A stretch of 64,000 nt of DNA from Candidatus Latescibacterota bacterium. Lineage in GTDB: Bacteria > Latescibacterota > UBA2968 > GCA-2709665. Under the pieces are notes generated by a model that was given only the letters and a program-made list of their open reading frames with translations, did not search any database and was not told the origin of the DNA. Of this stretch, positions 5,359 through 18,443 are shown in pieces; within the stretch, counting starts at the first letter, position 1, and each line of letters opens with the position of its first letter. Made by a program: the position numbers and the translations under genes. The stretch spans positions 2,624,001-2,688,000 of the forward strand of contig OZ244937.1 of NCBI GenBank assembly GCA_965222075.1. Direction: 5' to 3'.

Positions 5359-6360
5359 TTATGATCGCTCCTTGATATAGGCATCCGGATCGATCCGTCC
5401 TTTGTCGATCAACTCTCGGAACATCTCCACCGTCTCGGCAACCCCCTCTTCCAGCGGGCGGTGCGTCACCTTCCCAATTGCCCGTTCCAGCCCGCTGCCG
5501 TCCACCTCCGGTGGAAAGGGAAGCTGAAAATCCTCGAACGTGATCCTCCCGGCCGACTCGGGAGCGGCCTTTTCGATTGCCGCTACAACCTCGTGCATAT
5601 GGGGCATCAGCCCGCCCAGGTTAAAGACCGCGGCGCCTTCAAACCGCGCCCGCGCCGACTGAATAAACGCCCGCGCCGTATCGTCCGCATACTGAAACAC
5701 CGTCCGCCCGCCGTAGGAAATGTGATAAGGCCTTCCCCCAGCAGCGGCCAGCAGCGCCGTCGTCGGAGTCGAGGTCACCCCCTGGTCCCTTCCCACCCCG
5801 TACACCACATAGGGCCTAAAACCGATCGAAGCAACCCCATCGTCCTCCCAGTAGACATGGGCCGTGCCTTCATTCGCCTGCTTGTAGACCCCGTAGTGCG
5901 TATGGGGCTTCAGGGCGGCATCGTCGGTCAGCACCGCTCCCGGTTCATAATCCTCCGGCGCTCCGAATACCGCCACCGAACTGGCGTACACCACCTTGCC
6001 GATCCGGTCGAGCCGCCGTTTGACCGCCTCAAACACGTTCACCGTGCCCACAACATTTACACGCGCCCCAAGCGGCGGATCAGCTCTGCAAAAAGGCACT
6101 TGCAGGCCCGCTAAGTGGACCACATGCGTAACCTCGTGCGCATCCAGCGCCCCTTCAAGCGCCTCCAAGTCCGTAATATCTCCCACCACAAACACCACCT
6201 GCGCCAACTCCTCCTCCGAAAGCAACAGACGCAGCCTGTGGGGTTCCGACGCCAGGTCGAACACCACCACCGGCGTCCCCTCACGCACCAGGTTGCGCAC
6301 TGTCCAGGCGCCGATACACCCCAGCGCCCCTGTTACCAGAAACCGTTCCTGTTGAGGCAT
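5359..6360 (-). CDS. NAD-dependent epimerase/dehydratase (extended SDR)
   Basis: VTGALGCIG, HLAG, ASS, YGVYK. Confidence 0.85.
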   Translation of the reverse strand: MPQQERFLVTGALGCIGAWTVRNLVREGTPVVVFDLASEPHRLRLLLSEEELAQVVFVVGDITDLEALEGALDAHEVTHVVHLAGLQVPFCRADPPLGARVNVVGTVNVFEAVKRRLDRIGKVVYASSVAVFGAPEDYEPGAVLTDDAALKPHTHYGVYKQANEGTAHVYWEDDGVASIGFRPYVVYGVGRDQGVTSTPTTALLAAAGGRPYHISYGGRTVFQYADDTARAFIQSARARFEGAAVFNLGGLMPHMHEVVAAIEKAAPESAGRITFEDFQLPFPPEVDGSGLERAIGKVTHRPLEEGVAETVEMFRELIDKGRIDPDAYIKERS

Positions 6361-6384
6361 AAACCCTATAAAAACCCATTGATG

Positions 6385-6413
6385 TTGACAGAAGCTCCGA
6401 CAGGTCGTATCAT
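6385..6413 (+). promoter_or_regulatory. sigma70-type promoter upstream of the CPBP gene
   Basis: TTGACA-17bp-TATCAT. Confidence 0.55.
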
Positions 6414-6462
6414 AAACGAAAACCCAAACATTCAGGCGTTTGATTCATTCTGGATCTGTCCC

Positions 6463-7299
6463 TTGGAAAACCATCACACCACCGCACCCATTCCCCAACC
6501 TTTCCCCAACCTCAAAGGCGCCATCCTGCTCATGCTCGGCGGCTGGGGCCTCATGTTTTTGACCGGCGCTGCGGTCAGCCCTTTCCTCGGCATAGAGGCC
6601 ATGACCGCCGCAGGCAACATCGTCGGATTGAGCCTGATGACGTGGTTCGGCGTAAGAAAAGCGAGGGCGCCTGCAGTGGACGTCCTCTCTCTTCGTCCCT
6701 TTCCGCCCCGGCTCCTGGCTCCCCTGCTCCTTCTGGCGTTCTCCGGATCAATCCTGGTCGCGGAAATTGGCAACCTGGTAGAAGAAATCTTCCCCATCCC
6801 TCAATCCCTGCGCGACCTCTTCCTCCGCATCCTGCTCGCCGGGAACTGGCCGGAATTCCTGCAGCGGGCGGCCCTCATCGTCTTCATAGCCCCGGTTACC
6901 GAAGAGCTGATGTTCCGGGGCGTGTTCCAGCATGGACTGGTGAAAAACTACGGACCCAAAAAGGGGATCGCAATCGCCTCAATCTGTTTCGGCATCTTCC
7001 ACCTCATCCCCTGGCAGGCCCTGGGAGCTGCCCTGGTAGGCATCCTGCTTGGAATCGCGGTAATCCGCACAGGCTCTATTCTTGCAGGGATGGTCCTGCA
7101 CGCCATCTGGAACCTCCTGCCGCTGCTGGCGGTTTCCGCCCTGAAAAACGCCTCCCTGCCCGGCTATGGACTCAACGTGGACAAAATCGCCCACATCCCG
7201 GTTCCTGCCATCATTCTGGCTTTGGGGATCTTTCTGGTCGCCCTCCACAACTTCTGGCGCCAAACCGCCCTCCCGCACGACGGCGTCGAATGCGGCTGA
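6463..7299 (+). CDS. CPBP (CAAX/Abi) intramembrane glutamic protease; start uncertain (TTG 6463)
   Basis: PVTEELMFRG, FGIFH, HAIWN motifs; multiple TM helices. Confidence 0.85.
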   Translation: MENHHTTAPIPQPFPNLKGAILLMLGGWGLMFLTGAAVSPFLGIEAMTAAGNIVGLSLMTWFGVRKARAPAVDVLSLRPFPPRLLAPLLLLAFSGSILVAEIGNLVEEIFPIPQSLRDLFLRILLAGNWPEFLQRAALIVFIAPVTEELMFRGVFQHGLVKNYGPKKGIAIASICFGIFHLIPWQALGAALVGILLGIAVIRTGSILAGMVLHAIWNLLPLLAVSALKNASLPGYGLNVDKIAHIPVPAIILALGIFLVALHNFWRQTALPHDGVECG

Positions 7300-7368: not shown

Positions 7369-9789
7369 CTAAAACACCAGGACCGAAACCGCCTTCTGGA
7401 TCATAGCAATAGAAACCGACGCCATCCCCACCAGGGCCATGCCAACCTGAAAACCGACCATGAGCACGGCGGCGTAAAGGCGCCACTGCTGCTTGCCGTA
7501 CTTCTTCCAGAAATAGTAGCGTGCCAGGAGCGCGCCGATGATCTCGGTGATCAGATAGTGGGGGATGCTGGTAAGGCTCCGTATGTATCCGAAAACCAGA
7601 AGGATCGGCAGGCCGAAGACCGAAAGGACCACAAAGGAAATAACACCTACGATAAAGCCAACCCCGATAACATTCGGCTTGAGGGCCTCGAACAGGATCG
7701 GTTTGTCGTCCGAACTCTGGAGAAAGGCCCCGTCAAAGGAAGGAACCTGATCGACCTCGAACTGGTAGACCAGCTCCCGCCCCTGAGGGTCTCGCGCCTC
7801 TAAGATCAAGAGCTTGGGATTGGGCGTACCTGCACGAACGCCGTTCTCAGGCCCCTGGACCACCGGCGCAGAGGGCAGGCCTGCCTCAAGCGCCTCCGAG
7901 ATGTCGGGTTCTGACGGATCGATCGGCAGGGGTGGGTTCGGAGGCGGGTCGGTCCCCTCAAACCGGGTGTATAAGTACCCGACCCGGGACCAGGGGCCGT
8001 AGGTGCGTTTCCTGGAATCGTCGATATCCACATCGGCCGAGGCCCGGGCGCGCCAGTACCACCACGCTCCGTCGGGCAGGTTGCTCGGCTTGAAGGTGAC
8101 CGTCCTGGCCGACGCATCCTGTTCGACCTCGCCTCGCATGGTACTGGTGAACCACACGCACGAATTCAGCGCCCGGAGGGGCCACATCAACTGGACATAA
8201 GGGTAGGCGTCGGAGGGAATCGGCGCCAGTTTCCAGATATAGGACCAGTACAAAAAGCTGGTGATGAGCACCACCGGAATCATGAAGACCTCGGCCCTCA
8301 GGATACTCGTAAACCGCGTTCCGGTCAGCTCGATCTGCCGGAAGCGCTCGGCATGCGCCCCGTAGTTGTCCAACGGGAAGGGTACGAACCAGATCTCGAT
8401 CCCCTTGAAACCGCTCAGGAAGATCGTCGCCTCCCGGATATACGGAATATTCACGTTCTGCCCGATCAACCCGTCCAGCCGCGCGTTGACAAAGGAGATG
8501 AGCGGGGTGTAAACAAAGGCAAAAACAAAGAAGAACGCCAGCAGGATGTTGCTCACCAGCTCCGGAAAGAGGATCTTCGCCAAGACGATCGTATACATGC
8601 TGGAGATGCAGAACAGGACCACGCAGATCCAGATCCGAAAGTCCCCCCGCCCAGGCGGCGGCGTCCAACTCCCCTTTTCCTGCTTCTCAATCCGGGCGTT
8701 GCGCACCCCCGTAATGACCTGGTAAAGTCCGATCACCGTAATGGCAAAAGTGATCCCGATACCGAAACTCATCCAGAAATCGATGTTGGTCACAAAGTGG
8801 GTCTGGATCGTATCCATCCCCATAAACCAGTGGGGCATATACCCGTAACTGTGCAGTATCGGGCTGGCGATCGTATGGATCACCACCCCGATAAAGGCCC
8901 CCATCACTGCCCAGAACGGCGCCAGGAACCCGGCGAAGATCGGCGCTAAGTGGCACGTAAACCCGATCGGCGTGGCCGCCAGGAAATAGCCCGTGTACTG
9001 CGTGAAATCCACAAAGGGGATCGGGATAAGCTGAATCGGCCGTTCCATAAAAGCCCCGGTAATCGCCGGGACCGCCACGTAAATCGCACCCCAGACCACC
9101 CCCACAACCGCGCCGATGCTGAACACCCGCCACTTCCACGTATACTCCCCGCTGCTCTCCTCGGCCAAGGCCATCGCGCCCTGCGCGTTGATAGGGGCAA
9201 AGGGAAAAGGCAGGCGTTCGTAGTCGGAGGTAAGCCGGAAGAGCACGTAGCTGGCCGTGAACCACTCGATGCGCGTCATAATCATGCCCAAAACCAGCAG
9301 CGAGATCGGCCAGAACCAGTCCGCGTGGAGAAAGGTCCGTTCGATCAGCGCCGGGGAGTCGGGCGGGGGCGCCCACCAGAAGGGAATGAGGTGGGAAATG
9401 CCAAACTGCTTGGCCGCCGGAGACTGCACGAAATACTGGTGCCACAACAGCCCTTCAAAGGCCCCGGTCTCCCGTCCGATGAGGGCGCTGGTGACGTAGT
9501 AGAGCAGGTAGAGCTCCTGCTTTTTGAGCACCGTAAAGGAGCGCTTGGCCAGTTCCAGGAAGAGAATGATCGTCACCCACTGCGCCGCCGCCCCGATGGA
9601 GCCTCCAATCATCAGTTCCAAGTAGATATTCCCCGGAACCATGATCACCGAGACGAAGAGGGCGCCCAGGATCGTCTTGGTATTAAACCCGTCTTCAAAC
9701 TCCTCGGGCGCCTCCAAAAGATCCCGGTACTCTTCGATCTCCTCGAACTGGGAGGTCCTTCCCCTGCGAAAAATGTTCGCTAAAGCCAT
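7369..9789 (-). CDS. OPT-like polytopic membrane protein with an inserted soluble Ig/FnIII-like domain
   Basis: Many TM segments; ERLPFPFAP matches the OPT-like LPFP signature; about 145-aa hydrophilic insert near the C-terminus. Confidence 0.65.
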   Translation of the reverse strand: MALANIFRRGRTSQFEEIEEYRDLLEAPEEFEDGFNTKTILGALFVSVIMVPGNIYLELMIGGSIGAAAQWVTIILFLELAKRSFTVLKKQELYLLYYVTSALIGRETGAFEGLLWHQYFVQSPAAKQFGISHLIPFWWAPPPDSPALIERTFLHADWFWPISLLVLGMIMTRIEWFTASYVLFRLTSDYERLPFPFAPINAQGAMALAEESSGEYTWKWRVFSIGAVVGVVWGAIYVAVPAITGAFMERPIQLIPIPFVDFTQYTGYFLAATPIGFTCHLAPIFAGFLAPFWAVMGAFIGVVIHTIASPILHSYGYMPHWFMGMDTIQTHFVTNIDFWMSFGIGITFAITVIGLYQVITGVRNARIEKQEKGSWTPPPGRGDFRIWICVVLFCISSMYTIVLAKILFPELVSNILLAFFFVFAFVYTPLISFVNARLDGLIGQNVNIPYIREATIFLSGFKGIEIWFVPFPLDNYGAHAERFRQIELTGTRFTSILRAEVFMIPVVLITSFLYWSYIWKLAPIPSDAYPYVQLMWPLRALNSCVWFTSTMRGEVEQDASARTVTFKPSNLPDGAWWYWRARASADVDIDDSRKRTYGPWSRVGYLYTRFEGTDPPPNPPLPIDPSEPDISEALEAGLPSAPVVQGPENGVRAGTPNPKLLILEARDPQGRELVYQFEVDQVPSFDGAFLQSSDDKPILFEALKPNVIGVGFIVGVISFVVLSVFGLPILLVFGYIRSLTSIPHYLITEIIGALLARYYFWKKYGKQQWRLYAAVLMVGFQVGMALVGMASVSIAMIQKAVSVLVF

Positions 9790-9822
9790 TGGATATCTTC
9801 TGTTAAAAGGTGGATGTCAGGC

Positions 9823-12800
9823 TTATTTCGGATTCTCGCCCACTGCCTGTTCCTTCAACATCTGTTCGCCCTGCTCCCGGTATTTCGCCTTATCCGCCGC
9901 ATCCACGGTCCGCCAGATCAAAAATTGTTTCCGCAGCGCATTCGTAAACCCCTGGTTCACCCGCCGCCATGAGGCCGCATCTCCGGAGAGCCGGTCGATC
10001 GTTAGCGACAGCGTGTAGATATTGTACTCCCCGGTCGGCACTGCCTCAAAGTGGACCTGTTCGCTCACGCCCAGATCGAACGGCGCCAGCCAGATGGCCG
10101 TATCGATCGTATATCCCTTTCCCTTTTCAGTCTCGATTGCACCCAGCGTCGCGCCGTCGGTGTAAAACGTCCCCATCGCTTCGCCGCTGTGCGACTCAAA
10201 ATAGCCCACCAGAAAGACCGAGAGCCCAAACACATCGCTGCCCCCTACCGTAAATGGGAACTCGAAGTGCCAGCGGTCGCCGTCCGGCTCCGGCAGCTTC
10301 CAGCGGCGGGTGACATCCGGCACCGCCATCAAAGAGGCCTGCCGGGCCGGATAGAGGGTGGAAAGGATCACCACCGCCATGACCAGACCCGAAGAGGAAA
10401 TGGCCGAAAGCGACGAATAATTGAGCGTAACCCCCTCAAGCCAGCCCTGCGCAAGCAGCACCTTGGCCACCCCCTGTCCCATCAGGTACCCGCTCACCGT
10501 GCCTAAAACCGCATACACGCAGGCCTCGGCGACAAAGAGGAAGGCAATGTGGACCGGCGCCAGGCCCACCGCAGAATAGATCCCGATCTCCCGAAAACGT
10601 TCGTAGACCGACCCCATCATCGTATTCAGCACAATCAGGGCCGCAACCAGGATCGGAATAAAGAGGTTGCCCAGCCCTCGCAGCGAGGTATGGCCCAAAG
10701 AGCTGTAGACCGAAATCCGGATCCGCCCCTCATCGTCGGGAATACCCACAAAGAGGACCACCGAAAGCCGCGAAAGAAAGGCCTTTACCTGCGCCTGAAT
10801 ATCCACACCCGGATGGAACCGGACGGCCACAGACTGCAAGGGGCTGCCCACCTCGCGCAGCAGATAGTAAGGGATAATCAGGATATTGTCCGGGTCGAGG
10901 TGTTCGAAGGGCAGGATATCGACCTCCGGCTCTTCCAGCCCCTTCTTCTCTCGCCGCGACTGTGTATACATCCGGGAGATCGCCTCTTCATCCGTCTCTT
11001 CAAAGTCGGCCGGGCTGAGAATCTCGCCGTCTAAGTCCTTCACCTGCTGGAATTCCTCCGAATCGATCAGGCCGATAACCGTCAGCTGCTCCCCGAAGAG
11101 CCGAACCTGACGGTTGCCCACGTCATCAGGCGTAATTCCCAGCAGATCCGCGACCTTCCCCGGCAGGATACAGGCCCGTTCTCCCGGCCGGAACCAGCGG
11201 CCGGTACTGAGACAGCGGTCAATACCCGTCACCTCGGCCTCCTGTGGGGCCATTCCAAGCACACCCAGTGCCACGGTGGTCTTGTTCTCCGACTTCACTG
11301 GAATCTTCTTCTTGTCCCGGGTGTAATACCAGCTCCGGGGGGCCACCACGCCCAGATCCTTAAAATGGGTCACCGCATAGTCGTAGGCCACCTCCTCCAG
11401 GGCGCCCCAGAACTGGCTGCGGACCAGCACGCCCGGGTAGCCCCCCTCGCTATCCCGGTGGAGCTGGTGGAACTGTAGGGTCGACTTGATCGATGTGAAA
11501 GAAAGGACGGTAAAAGTGAGCAGCAGCAGCGTCACAAAGGTCAACCAGGTGCGCAGCTTGCGGCGCTTCATGTTGGCAATGCCAAGGTGGAAGGCGGCTA
11601 AGGAGGCGCTGATGCGGCCCACATCGGTCTCGTGCAGCAGAACCTCGTCGGTCCGCAGCCGGCGCATATTCTCGTTAAACCGGGAAAATACGAGCCAGAT
11701 CACAAAAATTGCAAGCGCCAGAATGACGAAAGCCAGAAGCACCACAAAGGGGTTGGAGAGGTCAAACGCCGGGTGGACCACGGAGAGGAACATCCAGATC
11801 ACCGCAAAGATTCCGGCAAACCCGACAACCTGCCAGCGGATATCGGGGGCGGTAAAAATCAGGCGCTCGGTAAAAAAGGCACAGGGGATGACCAGGGCCA
11901 TAAAGAAGATAATCCCCCGGATCACATCGTTCTGGGTTGCCTTCACATCCGGATATGCCCGCGACTCGATCCCCAGCGCCGCCCGGGTATGTTTCATAAA
12001 AGCATCCCAGAGCTTCTCCGCCATCGCCGCTTCGGCCTGCTTGAGGTGATACGCCGCATCGGCATGGAGGGTATTCAGCCGGTGATTCTCAATCGCATAC
12101 CGCTTCAACTCCTGCATCCGGGCCTCATCCAGCGTCCACATATCCTTCGCAGCCTGGAAGGACGTACGCGCAAACGACCCGTGGGTCAGCGTCGTAAACC
12201 CCTTGCCGCGGGCGGCCTCCTTGCTCTTGGCGCTCTGGGCGTTGAGCAGCAGGAAGCGCACGCCGATAACGCCTGAGCGCATCGCAATCTTGACCTTTTC
12301 CCCGGGCCGGGTGAAAATCGTTCCCACCGGCTCGGTCGGTCCAAATCCAATCGCATAGCCGTACTCCTGAGGGGCCGTATGACCCTCCCCGTAAATGCTG
12401 ATCTGCGAGAGCTTGGTCAGATAGCGGGGATCGACCGTGTCGTAGAAATCTGTGGCAATGCACGGAAAGAGGATGAGGGTGCGCTTGGAGATCCACCAGT
12501 CCATGTCAAACTCGCCCCGGTAGATCTGTGCCTGCTGCCCGAAGTTGGGCGCATAGGTAATCTCCCCCGTATCCGGATCGAGGTAATAGGCGGACACCGA
12601 CACCCGGCGTTCCGCGATGCCGGGCATGTAGAACTCCCCCTTCTCATCGGCCACATCGTAGTAGATTCGGCGTACCCCTTTGATCGACTTGTCGATGCCC
12701 ATCCGCAGGGCGGCCACCGCCCCCGGTTTGGGACGGTCGGGCACAATGCTGCGTCTGGGAAAGGTCCGCACAAACCCCTTCAACCCCCGCATCCGGTCGT

Positions 12801-14334
12801 CTGGATTGAGCCGGTAATCGGGCAGAAGGTCGGGACTGTTCAGGGCCAGGTCGAGTACCCCGGCCAGGAGGCGAACCTGTCCGGTCAGGTTCTGGTAGTT
12901 CACAAACGCCGGCCGGTCTAAGGGCGTATCCACCCGGAACCGGGCGTCGTTCACCGTAACCAGAGACAGCGCAGGGGTACCCGCCTCTAAGACAACCTCC
13001 CCGTCCGTCTTCAAATCCTTTCCCGGAATGTACATATCCCAGGTCATGCCGCCCGTCGGATTGATCCCATCCGCCAGGGCACGCTTCGGATCCAGCCCGA
13101 ACCCCTCGGCGATCGCCTTGGAAAATCGGACAAACGTCTTCCCAAAAGGCGTAAAGAACCGCTGATAGTAAAAACTCCGGGTGCTGTTCCAGACCCCAAC
13201 CTCATCGGTCTGGCTGGTCAGATCCAGTCCGATGAAGAGGCGAATATCGATCGGGTCGGTCACCAGCGCCCTAAAATGCCTCTCCTTCCGGGCGTGGCGC
13301 CCCAGAAAGTCGCAGATCCCACGAAACCCCAGGTGATGCGAGGAAGTGGCCAGAAAGAGCACCGTGCGTGCAGGCGGATACCGGCTGAAGTAGTCCACCA
13401 GTTCCATCAAAGCCACAATACCGCAGGCCATCTCCGCGCCGGGAGCCAGGGCCGGCACAACCGACATGGCGTCGTAATAGGCGCTGATCACCACAATCTG
13501 GTCCCTCAGCTCCGGATCGGTCCCCGGCACCGTCCCCAGGATGTTGTGCGCAGACAGCTTCTCCCAGTCCATCCGGGCGTTCAGTTCAACCTCGAGTTCC
13601 CCCTCTTGGGCCAGGAGCCGCTGCAGCGTCTCCCCGGATGCCTTGTCAATCCAGAACCGCTCCACGCGGTTGGGCACCTGGAGAAATTTCTGCTCGGCCT
13701 CTGTATAAAACGTGGAATCGGGTTCGATAAAAATAACCTGCCCGGCCCCCAGGGTGGCGGCATTGAGCCAGTTGTTCCAGGAGTTAAACACCATCAGAAC
13801 CGCCACACCTTCCATATCGTGGCCGTTAAATTCCCCGAACGTCCCGCTGCCGCCGTAGACAAGGCGGGTGCGAACGCCCCAGCGGGGGAGCGTGGAGGTC
13901 TTCACCAAATTCGGCCAGACCGCATAAATGGGAAAAGAGACCCCGCTTTTCACAAGCGTAAGCCTCCCCCCCTTGTCCACTGGAGACGTCACATCAAAGG
14001 CCTCGGTCCTGACATCCTCAAGCCCGAGGCGCTCAAATTCCTGCTGGATAAACCCGGCGGCGGCCTCGTGGCCGGGATAACCCGGAACGCGGGACCCCTG
14101 CTCGGTAAAACGGGCCATCAACCGGCGTACATCTGCCCCGGAGACCGCGTCTAAGACCCGGGCGGTCACTTCTTCGGCCCTTGAAACCCCCTTGGGAAAC
14201 ACGGGAGTGGGAGGCCTCAGGCCCAGGAAGTCCGACAGCCAGGGGTTGATCCGGTCGGGCCCTGCGCCTATCGCAAAAAACGCAAATGCCGCGAACCCGA
14301 CAAGCAGAATCAATCCGATGCGGCGAACGGCCAT
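9823..14334 (-). CDS. 1503-aa fusion: M28-fold/PA ectodomain (degenerate active site) + TM block + MacB periplasmic core + FtsX permease
   Basis: N-terminal signal/TM; SRVPGYPGH; NILGTVPG; SAYYD; APGAE; GRWFRPGERACILP (MacB core); SVYERFREIGIYSAVG (FtsX motif). Confidence 0.75.
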   Translation of the reverse strand: MAVRRIGLILLVGFAAFAFFAIGAGPDRINPWLSDFLGLRPPTPVFPKGVSRAEEVTARVLDAVSGADVRRLMARFTEQGSRVPGYPGHEAAAGFIQQEFERLGLEDVRTEAFDVTSPVDKGGRLTLVKSGVSFPIYAVWPNLVKTSTLPRWGVRTRLVYGGSGTFGEFNGHDMEGVAVLMVFNSWNNWLNAATLGAGQVIFIEPDSTFYTEAEQKFLQVPNRVERFWIDKASGETLQRLLAQEGELEVELNARMDWEKLSAHNILGTVPGTDPELRDQIVVISAYYDAMSVVPALAPGAEMACGIVALMELVDYFSRYPPARTVLFLATSSHHLGFRGICDFLGRHARKERHFRALVTDPIDIRLFIGLDLTSQTDEVGVWNSTRSFYYQRFFTPFGKTFVRFSKAIAEGFGLDPKRALADGINPTGGMTWDMYIPGKDLKTDGEVVLEAGTPALSLVTVNDARFRVDTPLDRPAFVNYQNLTGQVRLLAGVLDLALNSPDLLPDYRLNPDDRMRGLKGFVRTFPRRSIVPDRPKPGAVAALRMGIDKSIKGVRRIYYDVADEKGEFYMPGIAERRVSVSAYYLDPDTGEITYAPNFGQQAQIYRGEFDMDWWISKRTLILFPCIATDFYDTVDPRYLTKLSQISIYGEGHTAPQEYGYAIGFGPTEPVGTIFTRPGEKVKIAMRSGVIGVRFLLLNAQSAKSKEAARGKGFTTLTHGSFARTSFQAAKDMWTLDEARMQELKRYAIENHRLNTLHADAAYHLKQAEAAMAEKLWDAFMKHTRAALGIESRAYPDVKATQNDVIRGIIFFMALVIPCAFFTERLIFTAPDIRWQVVGFAGIFAVIWMFLSVVHPAFDLSNPFVVLLAFVILALAIFVIWLVFSRFNENMRRLRTDEVLLHETDVGRISASLAAFHLGIANMKRRKLRTWLTFVTLLLLTFTVLSFTSIKSTLQFHQLHRDSEGGYPGVLVRSQFWGALEEVAYDYAVTHFKDLGVVAPRSWYYTRDKKKIPVKSENKTTVALGVLGMAPQEAEVTGIDRCLSTGRWFRPGERACILPGKVADLLGITPDDVGNRQVRLFGEQLTVIGLIDSEEFQQVKDLDGEILSPADFEETDEEAISRMYTQSRREKKGLEEPEVDILPFEHLDPDNILIIPYYLLREVGSPLQSVAVRFHPGVDIQAQVKAFLSRLSVVLFVGIPDDEGRIRISVYSSLGHTSLRGLGNLFIPILVAALIVLNTMMGSVYERFREIGIYSAVGLAPVHIAFLFVAEACVYAVLGTVSGYLMGQGVAKVLLAQGWLEGVTLNYSSLSAISSSGLVMAVVILSTLYPARQASLMAVPDVTRRWKLPEPDGDRWHFEFPFTVGGSDVFGLSVFLVGYFESHSGEAMGTFYTDGATLGAIETEKGKGYTIDTAIWLAPFDLGVSEQVHFEAVPTGEYNIYTLSLTIDRLSGDAASWRRVNQGFTNALRKQFLIWRTVDAADKAKYREQGEQMLKEQAVGENPK

Positions 14335-14446
14335 TGAACAATCACCTCAACCAACTTAAATATTGCGGATTGAATGGCTTTTATTCCAGGCAGGGGAGAC
14401 GATCCGGCTGGGCGTTAGCCAATCGTCCGGGGTGGGGGTCCGAAAT

Positions 14447-16468
14447 CTAAAATCGATGGACATAATGCCCCCGTTCCGGAAACCAGATCATATCCACAAA
14501 CGTAGACAGCGCGATCCCTAAGACATAACCCACCAGCGCTCCGACGAAAAACGGCCGGGATTTCCGGTAAACCGACGGCCCGCCCACCTTCAGCATCACC
14601 AGCTTGATCAACCAGGCCATAAAAATCGTAAAACTCGTCCGTCGGGCCAGATAAGACCCCGAAATGGCCAGCCCCACCGGGTGCAGCGGCCACCAGACAA
14701 ACCGGTGGCGAAGGTAGATCAGCCCGGCCATGGCTACCCCGCCAATGCCGAAAAAGACGAGCTGGCCGGGATTTTCCATATAGACGGGAAGACCTGGATC
14801 TTTCGTAAAAAAATTCTTAACGGAAGTCGCCGTATATTTGAAATGCCTCATGCCGCCGCGTACGACCTGGTAACTGTGGAAGTTGTAAGCGCCGTCCCGG
14901 TACCCCAGATGGAGCGTTAGAAACACGCTCACCAGAAGGCTGATCAGAAACGCAAGGGCGATCGCAGCCATCAACGACCGCCGGTTGCGCCGAACCCCTT
15001 CGGCAATCCGCCCGGCATGGGCCAGAGCCGGAAGAAACAGCCCTTTGTAGTGCGAGACCATCCTCGACGCGAACCGGTAGGCCACGCGGGTGCTCGGACC
15101 AATGGCATAGCCACCGATAAAGGGGCCCACCAGTCCCCAGGGACCGGCCGGCACGTTGGTGTAGGGCATCCCCGTATCCGCCAGGATCTTGGCCATGCCC
15201 ACATAGGTGAAAATCACCGCCAGCAGCAACAGCACCGCCTGCAGAGGGTCGAACCCGATGCGGAAAAGCCAGACCCACATATAGGCCAGGCCGATGAGCA
15301 GCCCGATGAGCGCGGTGCGGTAAGAAAGGAGTTCGTCCCGGTCCTCAAGCGGATAGTCGCGGTTCAGCGCCTTATGGAACACATCCCGGATGTGGCGGCG
15401 AGCCACCCAGAACATGGAGAGGACCAGGACAAAGTAGGCTCCTTTTGTCTGCCAATAGTAATCGCTTCGGTAGTAGTAGGGCGAGATAACACTAAAGCCT
15501 ATCTTGTTGAGGTTACCCCCTTCAACAATAAAGAGCAGGTCGAAGAGCCAGATGCTGAGCAAAACGTCCAAGCTGGCAAAATAGGAAAAGAAAATCGTAA
15601 AAAGACCGAAAAATCCCCAGATTGGAGGGAACTGCCGGTCAATCCAGTACCAGCGCCCTCTGTATACCGGAAACCGGGGAAAACCGGGGAAAAAGTAGTT
15701 GAGACAGTTCCAGGCGATCATCCCGAAAGAGATCCCGAACCCGATCCAGAAGAGATAGTTTCTTGTAAATTCCGGCAGCCAGCGCTTCCCCGACCCCGGC
15801 CTGGAGGCCATATCGATCAGCGGGGCCACAGCCGGAAACACGAGGCGCTCGTGATGCACCCACTGCTTCCGGAAAATCACGGCCACACAGGCCAGGGCCA
15901 CAAAGGCGGCCACAATCATCGTAGTCCACCAGAACAGCGGCAACAGCCAGACCCCCCAGGGCACCTCTGCCCCCTGGGGAAGGCCCTCGTAGAACCAGGA
16001 GACGGCCTTTCCCTCATTTGAAGGCACCAGCCAGTTCGGAATGTAGGGATGGAGATACTTGTCCCACTCATTCTCAAGAGTGGCAAAGTAAAAGGGCGCA
16101 GCCATATAGCCGATCAGGTAGCCGCTGAGCCCGTAGACGGGTATGGCGGCGCCCACAAGCCCCATGGCCAGGATGGTGTGCCACTCGGAGGGCGAAAGCA
16201 CCACCCCGGTCAAACGGGAGATGACCGCCCCCCCCATCATCATCAAGGCAAAAACGATGAGCATCGCCATAGGAATATGGCTGTAGCTCATCAACGAGGC
16301 GTGTAAGACGTAGCGGACGTAAATGGCAAAAACGTCCAGCCCAACGACCAGAACCAGACCCAGCAGGACGGCCCGGGTGGTAACTCCTGTAGGTCTCAGA
16401 GCATCAGAAAGGGCGCCCGATGGGGCCTCAACGGTCTCTGTCTGAACGATTCGAGGGTCGGTTGCCAT
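14447..16468 (-). CDS. DUF6785/DUF6784-like polytopic membrane protein
   Basis: RKQWVHHERLVFP, WWPLHPVG and RPFFVG motifs recalled for this family; about 16 hydrophobic segments; likely start MATDP. Confidence 0.65.
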   Translation of the reverse strand: MATDPRIVQTETVEAPSGALSDALRPTGVTTRAVLLGLVLVVGLDVFAIYVRYVLHASLMSYSHIPMAMLIVFALMMMGGAVISRLTGVVLSPSEWHTILAMGLVGAAIPVYGLSGYLIGYMAAPFYFATLENEWDKYLHPYIPNWLVPSNEGKAVSWFYEGLPQGAEVPWGVWLLPLFWWTTMIVAAFVALACVAVIFRKQWVHHERLVFPAVAPLIDMASRPGSGKRWLPEFTRNYLFWIGFGISFGMIAWNCLNYFFPGFPRFPVYRGRWYWIDRQFPPIWGFFGLFTIFFSYFASLDVLLSIWLFDLLFIVEGGNLNKIGFSVISPYYYRSDYYWQTKGAYFVLVLSMFWVARRHIRDVFHKALNRDYPLEDRDELLSYRTALIGLLIGLAYMWVWLFRIGFDPLQAVLLLLAVIFTYVGMAKILADTGMPYTNVPAGPWGLVGPFIGGYAIGPSTRVAYRFASRMVSHYKGLFLPALAHAGRIAEGVRRNRRSLMAAIALAFLISLLVSVFLTLHLGYRDGAYNFHSYQVVRGGMRHFKYTATSVKNFFTKDPGLPVYMENPGQLVFFGIGGVAMAGLIYLRHRFVWWPLHPVGLAISGSYLARRTSFTIFMAWLIKLVMLKVGGPSVYRKSRPFFVGALVGYVLGIALSTFVDMIWFPERGHYVHRF

Positions 16469-16537
16469 TTTCAGCCGAGGGGAATCTCCTGCAATTCTTC
16501 GACATAGGAATAAAAATAATGTTGAGTATATCGTCAC

Positions 16538-16781
16538 GGTACACGACAAAAAATCAAGGTCCTATATAACCCCTTGATATACAATGAGATCTATTAGCCC
16601 CACAACGTGCGTTGGATCGGAAATGGTGAGCAACCAGTGACTTCTCGCTTCCTGTGCAGTGCAAAAGCAGGGTTTACACAGCATATCCGAGGCGAATAAA
16701 GCATATGCGTTACGGAATCTGGAGGCTTTTTAGTCCGTAATTAACTGCTTTACAATGTATTAGAAAGTTTTGTCGTGTACC
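16538..16781. repeat. Perfect 14-bp inverted repeat bracketing the operon leader
   Basis: GGTACACGACAAAA (16538-16551) and TTTTGTCGTGTACC (16768-16781). Confidence 0.8.
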
Positions 16782-16783
16782 TT

Positions 16784-16812
16784 AGTATATCGTACAACTT
16801 TCGTTTTGTCAA
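16784..16812 (-). promoter_or_regulatory. sigma70-type promoter for the membrane-protein operon
   Basis: Minus strand TTGACA-17bp-TATACT. Confidence 0.65.
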
Positions 16813-16971
16813 ATAAATATTCATAGGCACCAAAATACAGGCTCTGGTTTCATGCCCTTCATTATTATGGGAGCGGTTCTACGCCTATTCCCCAGGAGGT
16901 CCCCATGCGTCATACCGTCTGTTCACAATCTGCCAAAGGCTGACACAGAGGCGTATTCCTTTTCGAGATTC

Positions 16972-17000
16972 TTGACTTCAGCAGGCCATTTTGTTAGATT
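16972..17000 (+). promoter_or_regulatory. Promoter of tRNA-Phe
   Basis: TTGACT-17bp-TAGATT about 46 bp upstream of the tRNA. Confidence 0.5.
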
Positions 17001-17046
17001 TTCCTTATGCCGATTGAAGTCCGAAACAAGCCTCGGACAAGATGGA

Positions 17047-17122
<76 letters not shown>

Positions 17123-17139
17123 CCTCTTCCGATGCGTCG

Positions 17140-17184
17140 AGGCATCTGTGGCCCCGTTGAGAGGGTGTGCAGATGCCTTTTTTG
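17140..17184 (+). terminator. Putative rho-independent terminator after tRNA-Phe
   Basis: AGGCATCTG...CAGATGCCT stem followed by a T run. Confidence 0.5.
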
Positions 17185-17337
17185 CGTTAGCAAGTTCACA
17201 AACGGTGACCACAGCGGCCCGGTCCCGGCCAGACCACCTTCATACTTGTCATGATTGACTTCCTTAAAAAGATACATTACCTTCATAAAGCGGAACAAAA
17301 GCGGAACAGAACAGGATTCTCACCGTGACCGGAAGGT

Positions 17338-17514
17338 ATGGATATGGCCGTTCCTGAGCATATTGTGGATCGGGACCGCCTGATCGAACTGGTTCGGCAG
17401 GGGAGCACTCCCGAACAGATCGCGGAAATATTCCGCGTGGATGGAGGCATCGTTCGCGATATGATCCGGCGTCTCGAACAGAATGGGTATTACGACCTGC
17501 TCCGGAGAAAATGA
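17338..17514 (+). CDS. 58-aa small helix-turn-helix protein (below the ORF-track cutoff)
   Basis: MDMAVPEHIVDRDRLIELVRQGSTPEQIAEIFRVDGGIVRDMIRRLEQNGYYDLLRRK*; HTH pattern; purine-rich GGAAGG before the start. Confidence 0.6.
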   Translation: MDMAVPEHIVDRDRLIELVRQGSTPEQIAEIFRVDGGIVRDMIRRLEQNGYYDLLRRK

Positions 17515-17579
17515 CCCGAAAGACGGGCATCGCAGTTCTTGCCCTCTTCCATATACCACCATGGCTGGCGCCCCGGAGA

Positions 17580-18443
17580 TCACGCCCGAGGCTTCCATCG
17601 AAACCGCCCGGCAGGAAGAAGGAAGGGGCGCTTGCCGTATGCGACAAACGCCCCTTTGAGCCCCTCCTGAATGTCACCCTCGATCTCCTGAATGTCAATC
17701 TCGTCACGTCTCCGCACCCGTTCCACGTAACCGTCACGCAGGTCCACCACACGGTCGGAAGCCACCAGCATCTTGTGGTCGTGGGTGTTGGTCACAACCG
17801 TAACGCCGCTCTCTTGCTGGAGCCTTTTGAGAAGCTCGATAATCTCCTGCCCCGTGTTCAGATCCAGGTTTCCGGTGGGCTCATCGGCCAAGATCAGATC
17901 GGGGTCGTTGGCCATCGCGCGGGCAATGGCTACCCGCTGTTGCTGCCCCCCGGAGAGTTCGAACGGTTTGTGGTGCAAGCGATCTTCCAGGCCGACCAAA
18001 TTGAGTTTGTAAGCGGCTTTTTCTTCATACTCCGACTTGTTCATCCCGGAGAAAACCATCGGAAGCGCCACATTGTCCAGCGCCGTCATCACCGGAATCA
18101 GATTGAAACTCTGAAAAATATAGCCGATATTGTGACAGCGGTGGTAGGCGATTTGAGACTGGCTCAATGACGCCATGTTAATCCCGTTGACCCCCACCTC
18201 GCCCTTTGTAGGCCGGTCCAGAGCGCCAATCATATTGAAGAGGGTCGTCTTCCCCGACCCGGATGGACCCATAATGGAGAGGTATTCGCCCCGGATCACA
18301 TCGAGCGTGACCCCCTTGAGGGCGTGAACTTCCACATCGCCCATCCGGTAGGTCTTCCAGACGTCTCGAACCCCGATGATATAATCCTCTTCAGCACCTT
18401 GCGGCCCGGCGGCTGCGGGTTGCTCTTCAGGCTCCTGTGCCAT
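17580..18443 (-). CDS. ABC transporter ATP-binding protein, LolD/MacB-type
   Basis: Walker A GPSGSGKT, LSGGQQQR, ILADEPTGNLD, THD. Confidence 0.92.
   Translation of the reverse strand: MAQEPEEQPAAAGPQGAEEDYIIGVRDVWKTYRMGDVEVHALKGVTLDVIRGEYLSIMGPSGSGKTTLFNMIGALDRPTKGEVGVNGINMASLSQSQIAYHRCHNIGYIFQSFNLIPVMTALDNVALPMVFSGMNKSEYEEKAAYKLNLVGLEDRLHHKPFELSGGQQQRVAIARAMANDPDLILADEPTGNLDLNTGQEIIELLKRLQQESGVTVVTNTHDHKMLVASDRVVDLRDGYVERVRRRDEIDIQEIEGDIQEGLKGAFVAYGKRPFLLPAGRFRWKPRA

Follow-up and report, generated by a model that had tools for sequence, protein, structure and literature searches.

Proton-coupled import of substrates and homodimers formed through a scaffold domain are expected of proteins of the OPT/Yellow-Stripe-like (YSL) superfamily. 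ABC (ATP-binding cassette) systems of type VII such as MacAB-TolC, LolCDE, FtsEX-EnvC, YbbAP-TesA and YtrEF have, to our knowledge, been described with periplasmic or outer-membrane partners only, and none with a partner of secondary-transporter fold. The solved OPT-fold protein, HvYS1 of barley (PDB 7WSR/7WST), is a proton-coupled importer (PMC9691689), and the characterised type VII ABC systems act outward or within the envelope (PMC12646458). The locus considered here encodes proteins of both kinds. It lies in a window of 64,000 nucleotides (nt), the whole stretch of DNA analysed (contig OZ244937.1, positions 2,624,001 to 2,688,000), from an uncultured sponge-associated Latescibacterota bacterium. 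Three genes on the minus strand, encoding a DUF6785/DUF6784 protein, a 1503-amino-acid (aa) protein referred to as the giant and an 806-aa protein referred to as P3, look like the core, in the membrane, of an envelope machine that is conserved in the Latescibacterota and has not been described so far. The preferred reading, with a probability of roughly 0.55, is of a type VII ABC mechanotransducer that presents substrate with the help of ATP to an OPT-fold carrier; that the proteins form one machine is likely. The reading starts from observed folds, domain make-up, an altered M28 site, synteny, co-occurrence, one fusion and presence in RNA libraries.

The order of the operon from 5' to 3' is DUF6785/DUF6784, giant, P3, with intergenic spacers of 112 nt and 33 nt. 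The first open reading frame (ORF) extends over 14447-16549 from a TTG start (700 aa), and from the ATG at 16468 over 14447..16468 (673 aa), a start choice that agrees with the length of orthologues. The giant is encoded at 9823..14334 and P3, of OPT/Yellow-Stripe fold, at 7369..9789. The initial annotation of this DNA correctly saw three large, co-oriented and closely packed membrane genes (673, 1503 and 806 aa), but the gene order in its title was wrong, its 'OPT-like' 806-aa protein being the last of the three. A sigma-70-like promoter-like site (TTGACA-17-TATACT, 11/12) is situated upstream of the set at 16784..16812 on the minus strand; it is a consensus match only, the region containing nine such sites compared with 5.4 +/- 2.3 in shuffles. 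Also on the minus strand, 1111 nt upstream of the DUF6785 ATG, is the gene for a 287-aa ABC ATPase of the LolD/MacB/FtsE clade (17580..18443). Within the gap is a tRNA-Phe(GAA) on the plus strand (17047..17122; ARAGORN; Rfam 68.6 bits), which the initial annotation missed and which is retained close to the operon, on its upstream side, in 11 of the 14 related loci that were checked, and a terminator-like hairpin of 15 pairs (17656-17623) marks the 3' end of the ATPase ORF. With the opposite-strand tRNA and the hairpin in between, the ATPase is a separate transcription unit, and the idea that the operon's promoter serves it was abandoned on this ground and on adjacency in just 16 of 80 related loci. 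Metatranscriptome contigs of at least 99% identity were found on all four genes (four sponge runs from one study), and one spans 16559-16766, just downstream of the promoter-like site; stretches without contig cover carry no information.

The first protein of the operon matched DUF6785 (PF20581; E 4.1e-105, 352.6 bits) and DUF6784 (PF20580; E 1.3e-20, 73.9 bits) above the Pfam cut-offs. For P3 neither Pfam, the DUF6785 and DUF6784 models included, nor NCBIfam gave a match, even with the threshold relaxed to E 10. BLASTP of P3 against the DUF6785 protein gave nothing significant, so the kinship of the two is visible solely at profile level. When a 34-sequence P3 alignment (A1) was compared by hhalign with a 53-sequence DUF6785 alignment (A2) they matched with 90% probability (E 1.6e-6) over 198 columns of the N-terminal third. 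The common ERLxFP motif pointed out in the initial annotation is present as ERLVFP at residues 207-212 of the 673-aa DUF6785 form and as ERLPFP at residues 191-196 of P3; the two occupy identical columns in the hhalign comparison and the motif is therefore not a matter of chance. Its proposal that both polytopic proteins are distant OPT-fold relatives was borne out by this match and by a whole-chain fold comparison with HvYS1, in which the Yellow-Stripe core and the scaffold were both recovered. PF03169 (OPT) matched neither P3 nor the DUF6785 protein, and matched nothing across the bacterium's own genome; PDB sequence searches with the P3 profile and with the DUF6785 protein likewise gave no matches. 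Weak PF03169 matches in 3 of 34 P3 homologues (best E 6.2e-4), together with one archaeal DUF6785 Atlas cluster in which 11% of members carry PF03169, point to OPT kinship too. The assignment of the DUF6785/DUF6784 protein and P3 as distant OPT/Yellow-Stripe-fold relatives is thus supported. Unlike HvYS1 and the PF03169 proteins, however, they show only 11-14% sequence identity to OPT/Yellow-Stripe-like proteins, do not reach PF03169, are co-encoded with an ABC-type partner and, in P3, contain an Ig-like beta-sandwich insert (residues 550-694; 7708..8142, minus strand). The insert is missing from the 662-aa P3 of streamlined relatives; the positive-inside rule applied to model helices was ambiguous as to its side of the membrane. 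P3 is 54-58% identical across classes.

The giant has the make-up of a type VII permease, its FtsX C-terminal domain following a periplasmic core domain. In Pfam it matched FtsX (E 6.9e-13, 49.1 bits against a cut-off of 25.5) and, below threshold, MacB_PCD (E 1.4e-4, 22.7 bits against a cut-off of 27). A family profile of 29 sequences (A3) searched against the PDB found two M28 aminopeptidases with PA domain, 2ek8_A (E 1.7e-14, positions 59-341) and YwaD of B. subtilis (E 9.6e-10), as well as MacB (5lil_A, E 2.9e-10), YtrF, LolC and LolF. All 29 members of A3 matched FtsX, 21 Peptidase_M28 (PF04389), 18 MacB_PCD and 7 PA, while PF04389 did not match the window's giant itself. The fusion of an M28/PA-like domain to a MacB/FtsX permease that had been proposed at the outset is thus supported from three sides: Pfam, the PDB matches of A3 and the domain counts in homologues. 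The PA/M28-like ectodomain takes up residues ~59-500 (12835..14160) and the MacB-type module residues ~925-1340 (10315..11562), comprising transmembrane helix (TM) 1, the periplasmic core domain and TM2-4, both on the minus strand; the giant itself lacks a nucleotide-binding domain. Hydropathy of the translation, judged by eye, suggests that its order would be an N-terminal anchor, a periplasmic region of ~780 aa, three extra TMs, the four-helix MacB-type module and a 165-aa cytoplasmic tail. Some 300 residues of the periplasmic head region (500-800) are without a domain assignment. Complex prediction of giant fragments 500-800, 952-1222 and 1340-1503 with P3's Ig-like insert scored 0.13, where the mark is 0.32, a result that speaks neither for nor against contact. 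Four giants, P0382, P0388, P0393 and P0395, reach 2451-3053 aa by N-terminal extensions, and in the two scanned with Pfam (P0382 and P0393) Big_5 Ig-like domains precede the M28-like head.

The head carries an altered M28 site (Y287, D288, E301, H333, H334, D371). Residues 265-352 of the giant can be aligned with Nicalin as well as with bacterial leucyl aminopeptidase. In a HMMER alignment to leucyl aminopeptidase (1amp/2anp) the zinc-ligand and general-base positions are occupied by Y287, E301, H333 and H334 where the enzyme has H, D, E and E, which we take to be H97, D117, E151 and E152 of the canonical two-zinc and catalytic site of 1amp. The replacements recur in 125 homologues: H97 to Y in 125, D117 to E in 122, E151 to H in 124 and E152 to H in 117. 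D371, invariant across A3, is presumably the retained equivalent of D179, and the equivalent of H256 is presumably lost. On the sequence evidence the head is not a canonical M28 peptidase and its pocket is nonetheless strongly constrained. As the canonical zinc and catalytic residues are lost a hydrolysis step is not to be assumed, and the 'processing' put forward in the initial annotation is unsupported as ordinary M28 chemistry. The conserved Y/E/H/H/D pocket on an M28 scaffold is a candidate for a new ligand- or metal-binding site.

Set against described type VII ABC systems, the giant shares the C-terminal FtsX four-helix module and the MacB-type core domain. YbbAP-TesA and FtsEX also have a hydrolase-shaped periplasmic element on the motor (PMC12646458). 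In the giant, by contrast, the hydrolase-like head is joined in cis and its site is non-canonical; the three extra TMs and the cytoplasmic tail are further differences. As conserved partners it has OPT-fold carriers, fused to it in at least one case, and operons of streamlined relatives add a minimal FtsX protein without periplasmic domain and a PqqD-like protein. No full-text literature was found on DUF6785 or DUF6784, nor on a type VII ABC, OPT, M28 and FtsX system in Latescibacter, subscription-only literature being outside the scope of the search. A stable ABC-OPT machine, if true, would be a new way to build a transporter and would give a first functional handle on DUF6785 and DUF6784, which are among the most expanded membrane families of a widespread, uncultured, polymer-degrading phylum.

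Attempts to trace the locus beyond this genome employed a scan of one genome per species, which gave 80 related loci, all labelled Latescibacterota or mislabelled relatives. The giant lies upstream of P3, at most 400 nt away in 73 of these and at most 1.2 kb away in 77, at identities as low as about 55%; the exceptions were L052 and L070 (short upstream sequence without a giant) and L074 (a 9-kb gap). Within the 73 loci DUF6785 was upstream of the giant in 51, not so in 15, and 7 could not be judged. Of 168 genomes of the phylum, 154 had a match to the P3 profile, 154 to DUF6785, 155 to the head of the giant and 149 to the clade of this ATPase (E <= 1e-75), and each was found in 0 of 13 genomes of family f10. 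The families that had been proposed as one system therefore co-occur across the phylum (149-155 of 168), with giant and P3 adjacent almost throughout (77 of 80). The bacterium's own genome contains eight giant paralogues, seven of which abut an OPT-fold gene. A fusion search with giant residues 304-1503 against 1.84 billion representatives gave 1341 clusters at E <= 1e-30, of which 150 were listed; among the matches listed there is at least one natural fusion, P0370 (2120 aa), in which MacB_PCD and FtsX are followed by DUF6785 (E 9e-120) and DUF6784. Two loci show departures of another kind. At L039:1-5400, from an 8.1-Mb close relative, DUF6785 is gone and the giant comes directly after tRNA-Phe, with two minus-strand genes between the ATPase and the tRNA; at L050:3259-5117 the giant has upstream of it a DUF6785 gene that is broken over several frames, which probably reflects a pseudogene or an error of assembly.

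The ATPase matched ABC_tran (E 1.6e-33), and Walker A, Q-loop, signature, Walker B and H-loop are intact as read on the translation. As in type VII ABC systems, this candidate nucleotide-binding subunit is encoded separately. Its best NCBIfam match was LolD (TIGR02211; 229.1 bits, full length), then DarD, MacB and FtsE. It was rejected as a true LolD with a score below the equivalog cut-off (307.75) and no LolC or LolE neighbour. A separate LolCDE-like set is encoded at 2.233 Mb. The neighbours of the ATPase gene are the tRNA and an AP_endonuc_2 gene. The early observation of an ATPase with no other adjacent permease was confirmed, and orthologues in three other genomes were also orphans with no FtsX neighbour. 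An orthologue of at least 75% identity was found upstream of the operon in 16 of the 80 loci, all close relatives (a direct recount; a stricter script had counted 14). In many complete genomes of family f2 the ATPase is 3-60 kb upstream of the operon, which looks like a decaying ancestral linkage. Most genomes of the phylum have two members of the clade: alongside the orthologue of the window's ATPase there is a paralogue, 61-66% identical. In the bacterium's own genome the paralogue (64% identical) is at 3202891-3203604, directly after a small FtsX gene at 3202126-3202788. It is probable, judging from sequence and context, that the window's ATPase is a motor acting on the giant in trans. The final ~40 codons of its ORF cross the 15-pair hairpin and orthologue lengths range over 263-287 aa; one RNA contig has many small insertions exactly at this hairpin, which suggests a strain variant. 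Elsewhere in the genome a divergent DUF6785 paralogue (L087:6796-9779; C1:1890796-1893779) is directly followed, with no FtsX between, by the gene for a 273-aa ABC ATPase 38% identical to that of the window.

Further parts became apparent in five streamlined genomes (0.8-2.6 Mb), each with a single member of the ATPase clade. In four of the five its gene shares the giant's strand and lies ~4.5 kb downstream; in the fifth the locus is split over contigs. Three of these loci were fetched and contain DUF6785/6784, giant, P3, p294, PqqD-like, small FtsX and ATPase genes, with a TPR gene between DUF6785/6784 and giant annotated in L111 only; counting this gene the operon has eight. The PqqD-family protein matched PF05402 (E 1.5e-10), p294 is 294 aa in length and the small FtsX protein 228 aa, with almost no periplasmic loop. 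A minimal FtsX beside the giant suggests an asymmetric permease pair. The p294 and PqqD-like genes directly follow P3 in 34-35 of the 80 loci, all in a distant group and none in the window's own clade. Their counterparts in the bacterium's own genome are at 740671-741582 (p294-like) and 738182-738532 (PqqD-like). With counterparts thus scattered, the window holds the membrane core and one of two candidate motors and not the whole system, for which the parts list reads giant, P3, DUF6785, small FtsX, two ATPases, a PqqD-like protein and a ~300-aa protein. The PqqD-like and p294-like genes belong to a four-gene minus-strand cluster (L114:6063-9606; C1:738063-741606) between lexA and NADH-dehydrogenase genes, and its two other proteins (197 and 343 aa) had no Pfam match.

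The DUF6785 family is expanded. The 5.36-Mb genome gave 47 matches, or ~46 copies (e.g. C1:27349-29370, 60204-62288 and 155391-157385; loci L089-L100), and large genomes of the phylum 13-88 first-look candidates each. Among the 141 neighbouring proteins annotated from 20 regions around the paralogues are sulfatases, proteins resembling heparinases, pectate lyases and carrageenases, enzymes of the GFO/IDH/MocA group and of the enolase superfamily, sugar-acid enzymes, gamma-glutamyltranspeptidases (GGT) and peptidases; in three loci a TonB-receptor-like protein comes directly downstream. The lyase-like proteins, sulfatases, GGT and peptidases suggest peptides, glycopeptides, oligosaccharides or uronates as candidate substrates. 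DUF6785 looks like the main inner-membrane importer family of the phylum. PhyH-family dioxygenases also recur beside the paralogues (7 of the 141 neighbours; L093, L096, L097, L098 and L100).

The machine envisaged would have the giant as its type VII ABC (MacB/FtsX-type) permease, with a PA/M28-shaped periplasmic head and a remodelled, conserved pocket. It would be driven in trans by the upstream LolD-like ATPase, by its 64%-identical paralogue or by both. The DUF6785/6784 protein and P3 would be elevator-type OPT/Yellow-Stripe-fold carriers lying against the giant in the membrane. Binding and hydrolysis of ATP in the cytoplasm would move the periplasmic head and core domain by mechanotransmission, a movement by which the head may capture a periplasmic substrate or present it to the OPT-fold carrier, which would then take it across the inner membrane. 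Import of nutrient fragments is favoured because ~46 DUF6785 paralogues sit in catabolic loci and because HvYS1 provides the precedent of an importer; import is probably the direction, at about twice the odds of export. A wider version, put forward only tentatively, is a hybrid primary/secondary-active transporter. In this a type VII mechanotransducer (giant, minimal FtsX and one or two LolD-like ATPases) would be physically attached to OPT-fold carriers of elevator type, with fusion of the two in some lineages, coupling ATP-powered capture or release in the periplasm to passage. The PqqD-like and ~300-aa pair would serve as acceptor or donor, and the DUF6785 branch would be the main inner-membrane uptake route of catabolic loci.

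A number of observations weigh against this machine as drawn. In 15 of the 66 judgeable loci, the close relative L039 among them, the giant has no DUF6785 gene upstream. The ATPase is not adjacent to the operon in 64 of 80 loci and here it is cut off by the opposite-strand tRNA and the terminator-like hairpin. Several other FtsX-type permeases of ~800 aa in the bacterium's own genome are also without a nearby ATPase, so the assignment of the ATPase to the giant is not unique, and the ATPase of the streamlined operons shares 76% identity with the paralogue at 3.203 Mb and 61% with the window's ATPase. None of the RNA contigs from the four metatranscriptome runs bridged a gene junction, so co-transcription stays undemonstrated, and DNA carry-over into those libraries is possible. 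The joint absence of the four families from f10 is one phylogenetic event and hence weak as statistics. The head belongs to the M28 group in sequence and fold and does not have the canonical two-zinc site or the catalytic Glu. Finally, the core (giant, P3, PqqD-like, small FtsX and ATPase) is single-copy in genomes of 0.8-2.6 Mb, and a single-copy core together with a cytoplasmic peptide binder of PqqD type fits housekeeping or export at least as well as import.

The last point leads to the alternative that survives best, which is nonetheless somewhat unlikely: a housekeeping role in export or envelope biogenesis. Here the PqqD-like and ~300-aa pair would pass on a peptide or an envelope precursor, which the OPT-fold protein would transport outward, and the giant would receive, hold or release cargo in the periplasm, like LolCDE or YbbAP-TesA. 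It gains from a core that is near-universal (154-155 of 168 genomes) and, in streamlined genomes, in one operon with a PqqD-family protein, from the strong conservation of P3 (54-58% across classes), from p294 and PqqD genes directly behind P3 in 34-35 of 80 loci, and from the outward or within-envelope action of all the characterised type VII ABC systems (PMC12646458). Against this, the sole solved OPT-fold protein is a proton-coupled importer (PMC9691689), the DUF6785 branch stands at ~46 copies in catabolic loci, the genome already has its separate LolCDE-like set at 2.233 Mb, and the surroundings of the operon yielded no cargo gene, for instance one for a small precursor peptide.

A second alternative, distinctly less probable, would have the giant move no cargo at all and, like BceAB or FtsEX, use ATP for sensing or for gating, with the OPT-fold carrier or some partner in the periplasm switched on and off. 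Regulation of periplasmic enzymes is described for systems of the FtsX family, FtsEX being one, and an M28 head that has lost the canonical catalytic residues and kept a conserved pocket is what a ligand-binding pseudo-enzyme would look like; the giant profile also matches Nicalin, an inactive M28-like protein (E 4.8e-5). However, the cluster is not accompanied by a conserved kinase, response regulator or known target enzyme, and the DUF6785/6784 fusion argues for a stable stoichiometric complex, though it is compatible with gating. The least probable alternative is that two secondary transporters and an unrelated ABC permease are co-regulated and mechanistically independent, the ATPase serving other orphan FtsX permeases, for which speak the ~38 of 46 own-genome DUF6785 copies with no giant alongside, the ATPase unlinked in most relatives and the other ~800-aa FtsX permeases here with no ATPase nearby, but which is very unlikely given the adjacency of giant and P3, which covers 77 of 80 loci and persists to about 55% identity, the matching presence and absence of four families across 168 genomes, the natural fusion P0370 and the eight-gene operon of streamlined genomes. 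The mechanotransducer feeding an OPT-fold carrier is preferred to all three.

Among the neighbouring features is a CPBP gene (Rce1-like, E 2.2e-21) on the plus strand at 6115-7299, with a promoter-like site at 6385-6413 on the same strand. That it converges on the end of the operon, as initially described, is correct, its own end being 70 nt from the P3 stop, but the protease was rejected as a member of the system since it was found beside P3 in merely 3 of 80 loci (L001, L003 and L039). Its 394-aa frame overlaps the 5' end of a divergent epimerase gene (5359-6360) by 245 nt, and the true CPBP gene is probably shorter than this frame. Further along the window, at 52165-57408 on the minus strand, is a complete rRNA operon (5S, 23S, tRNA-Ala, tRNA-Ile and 16S).

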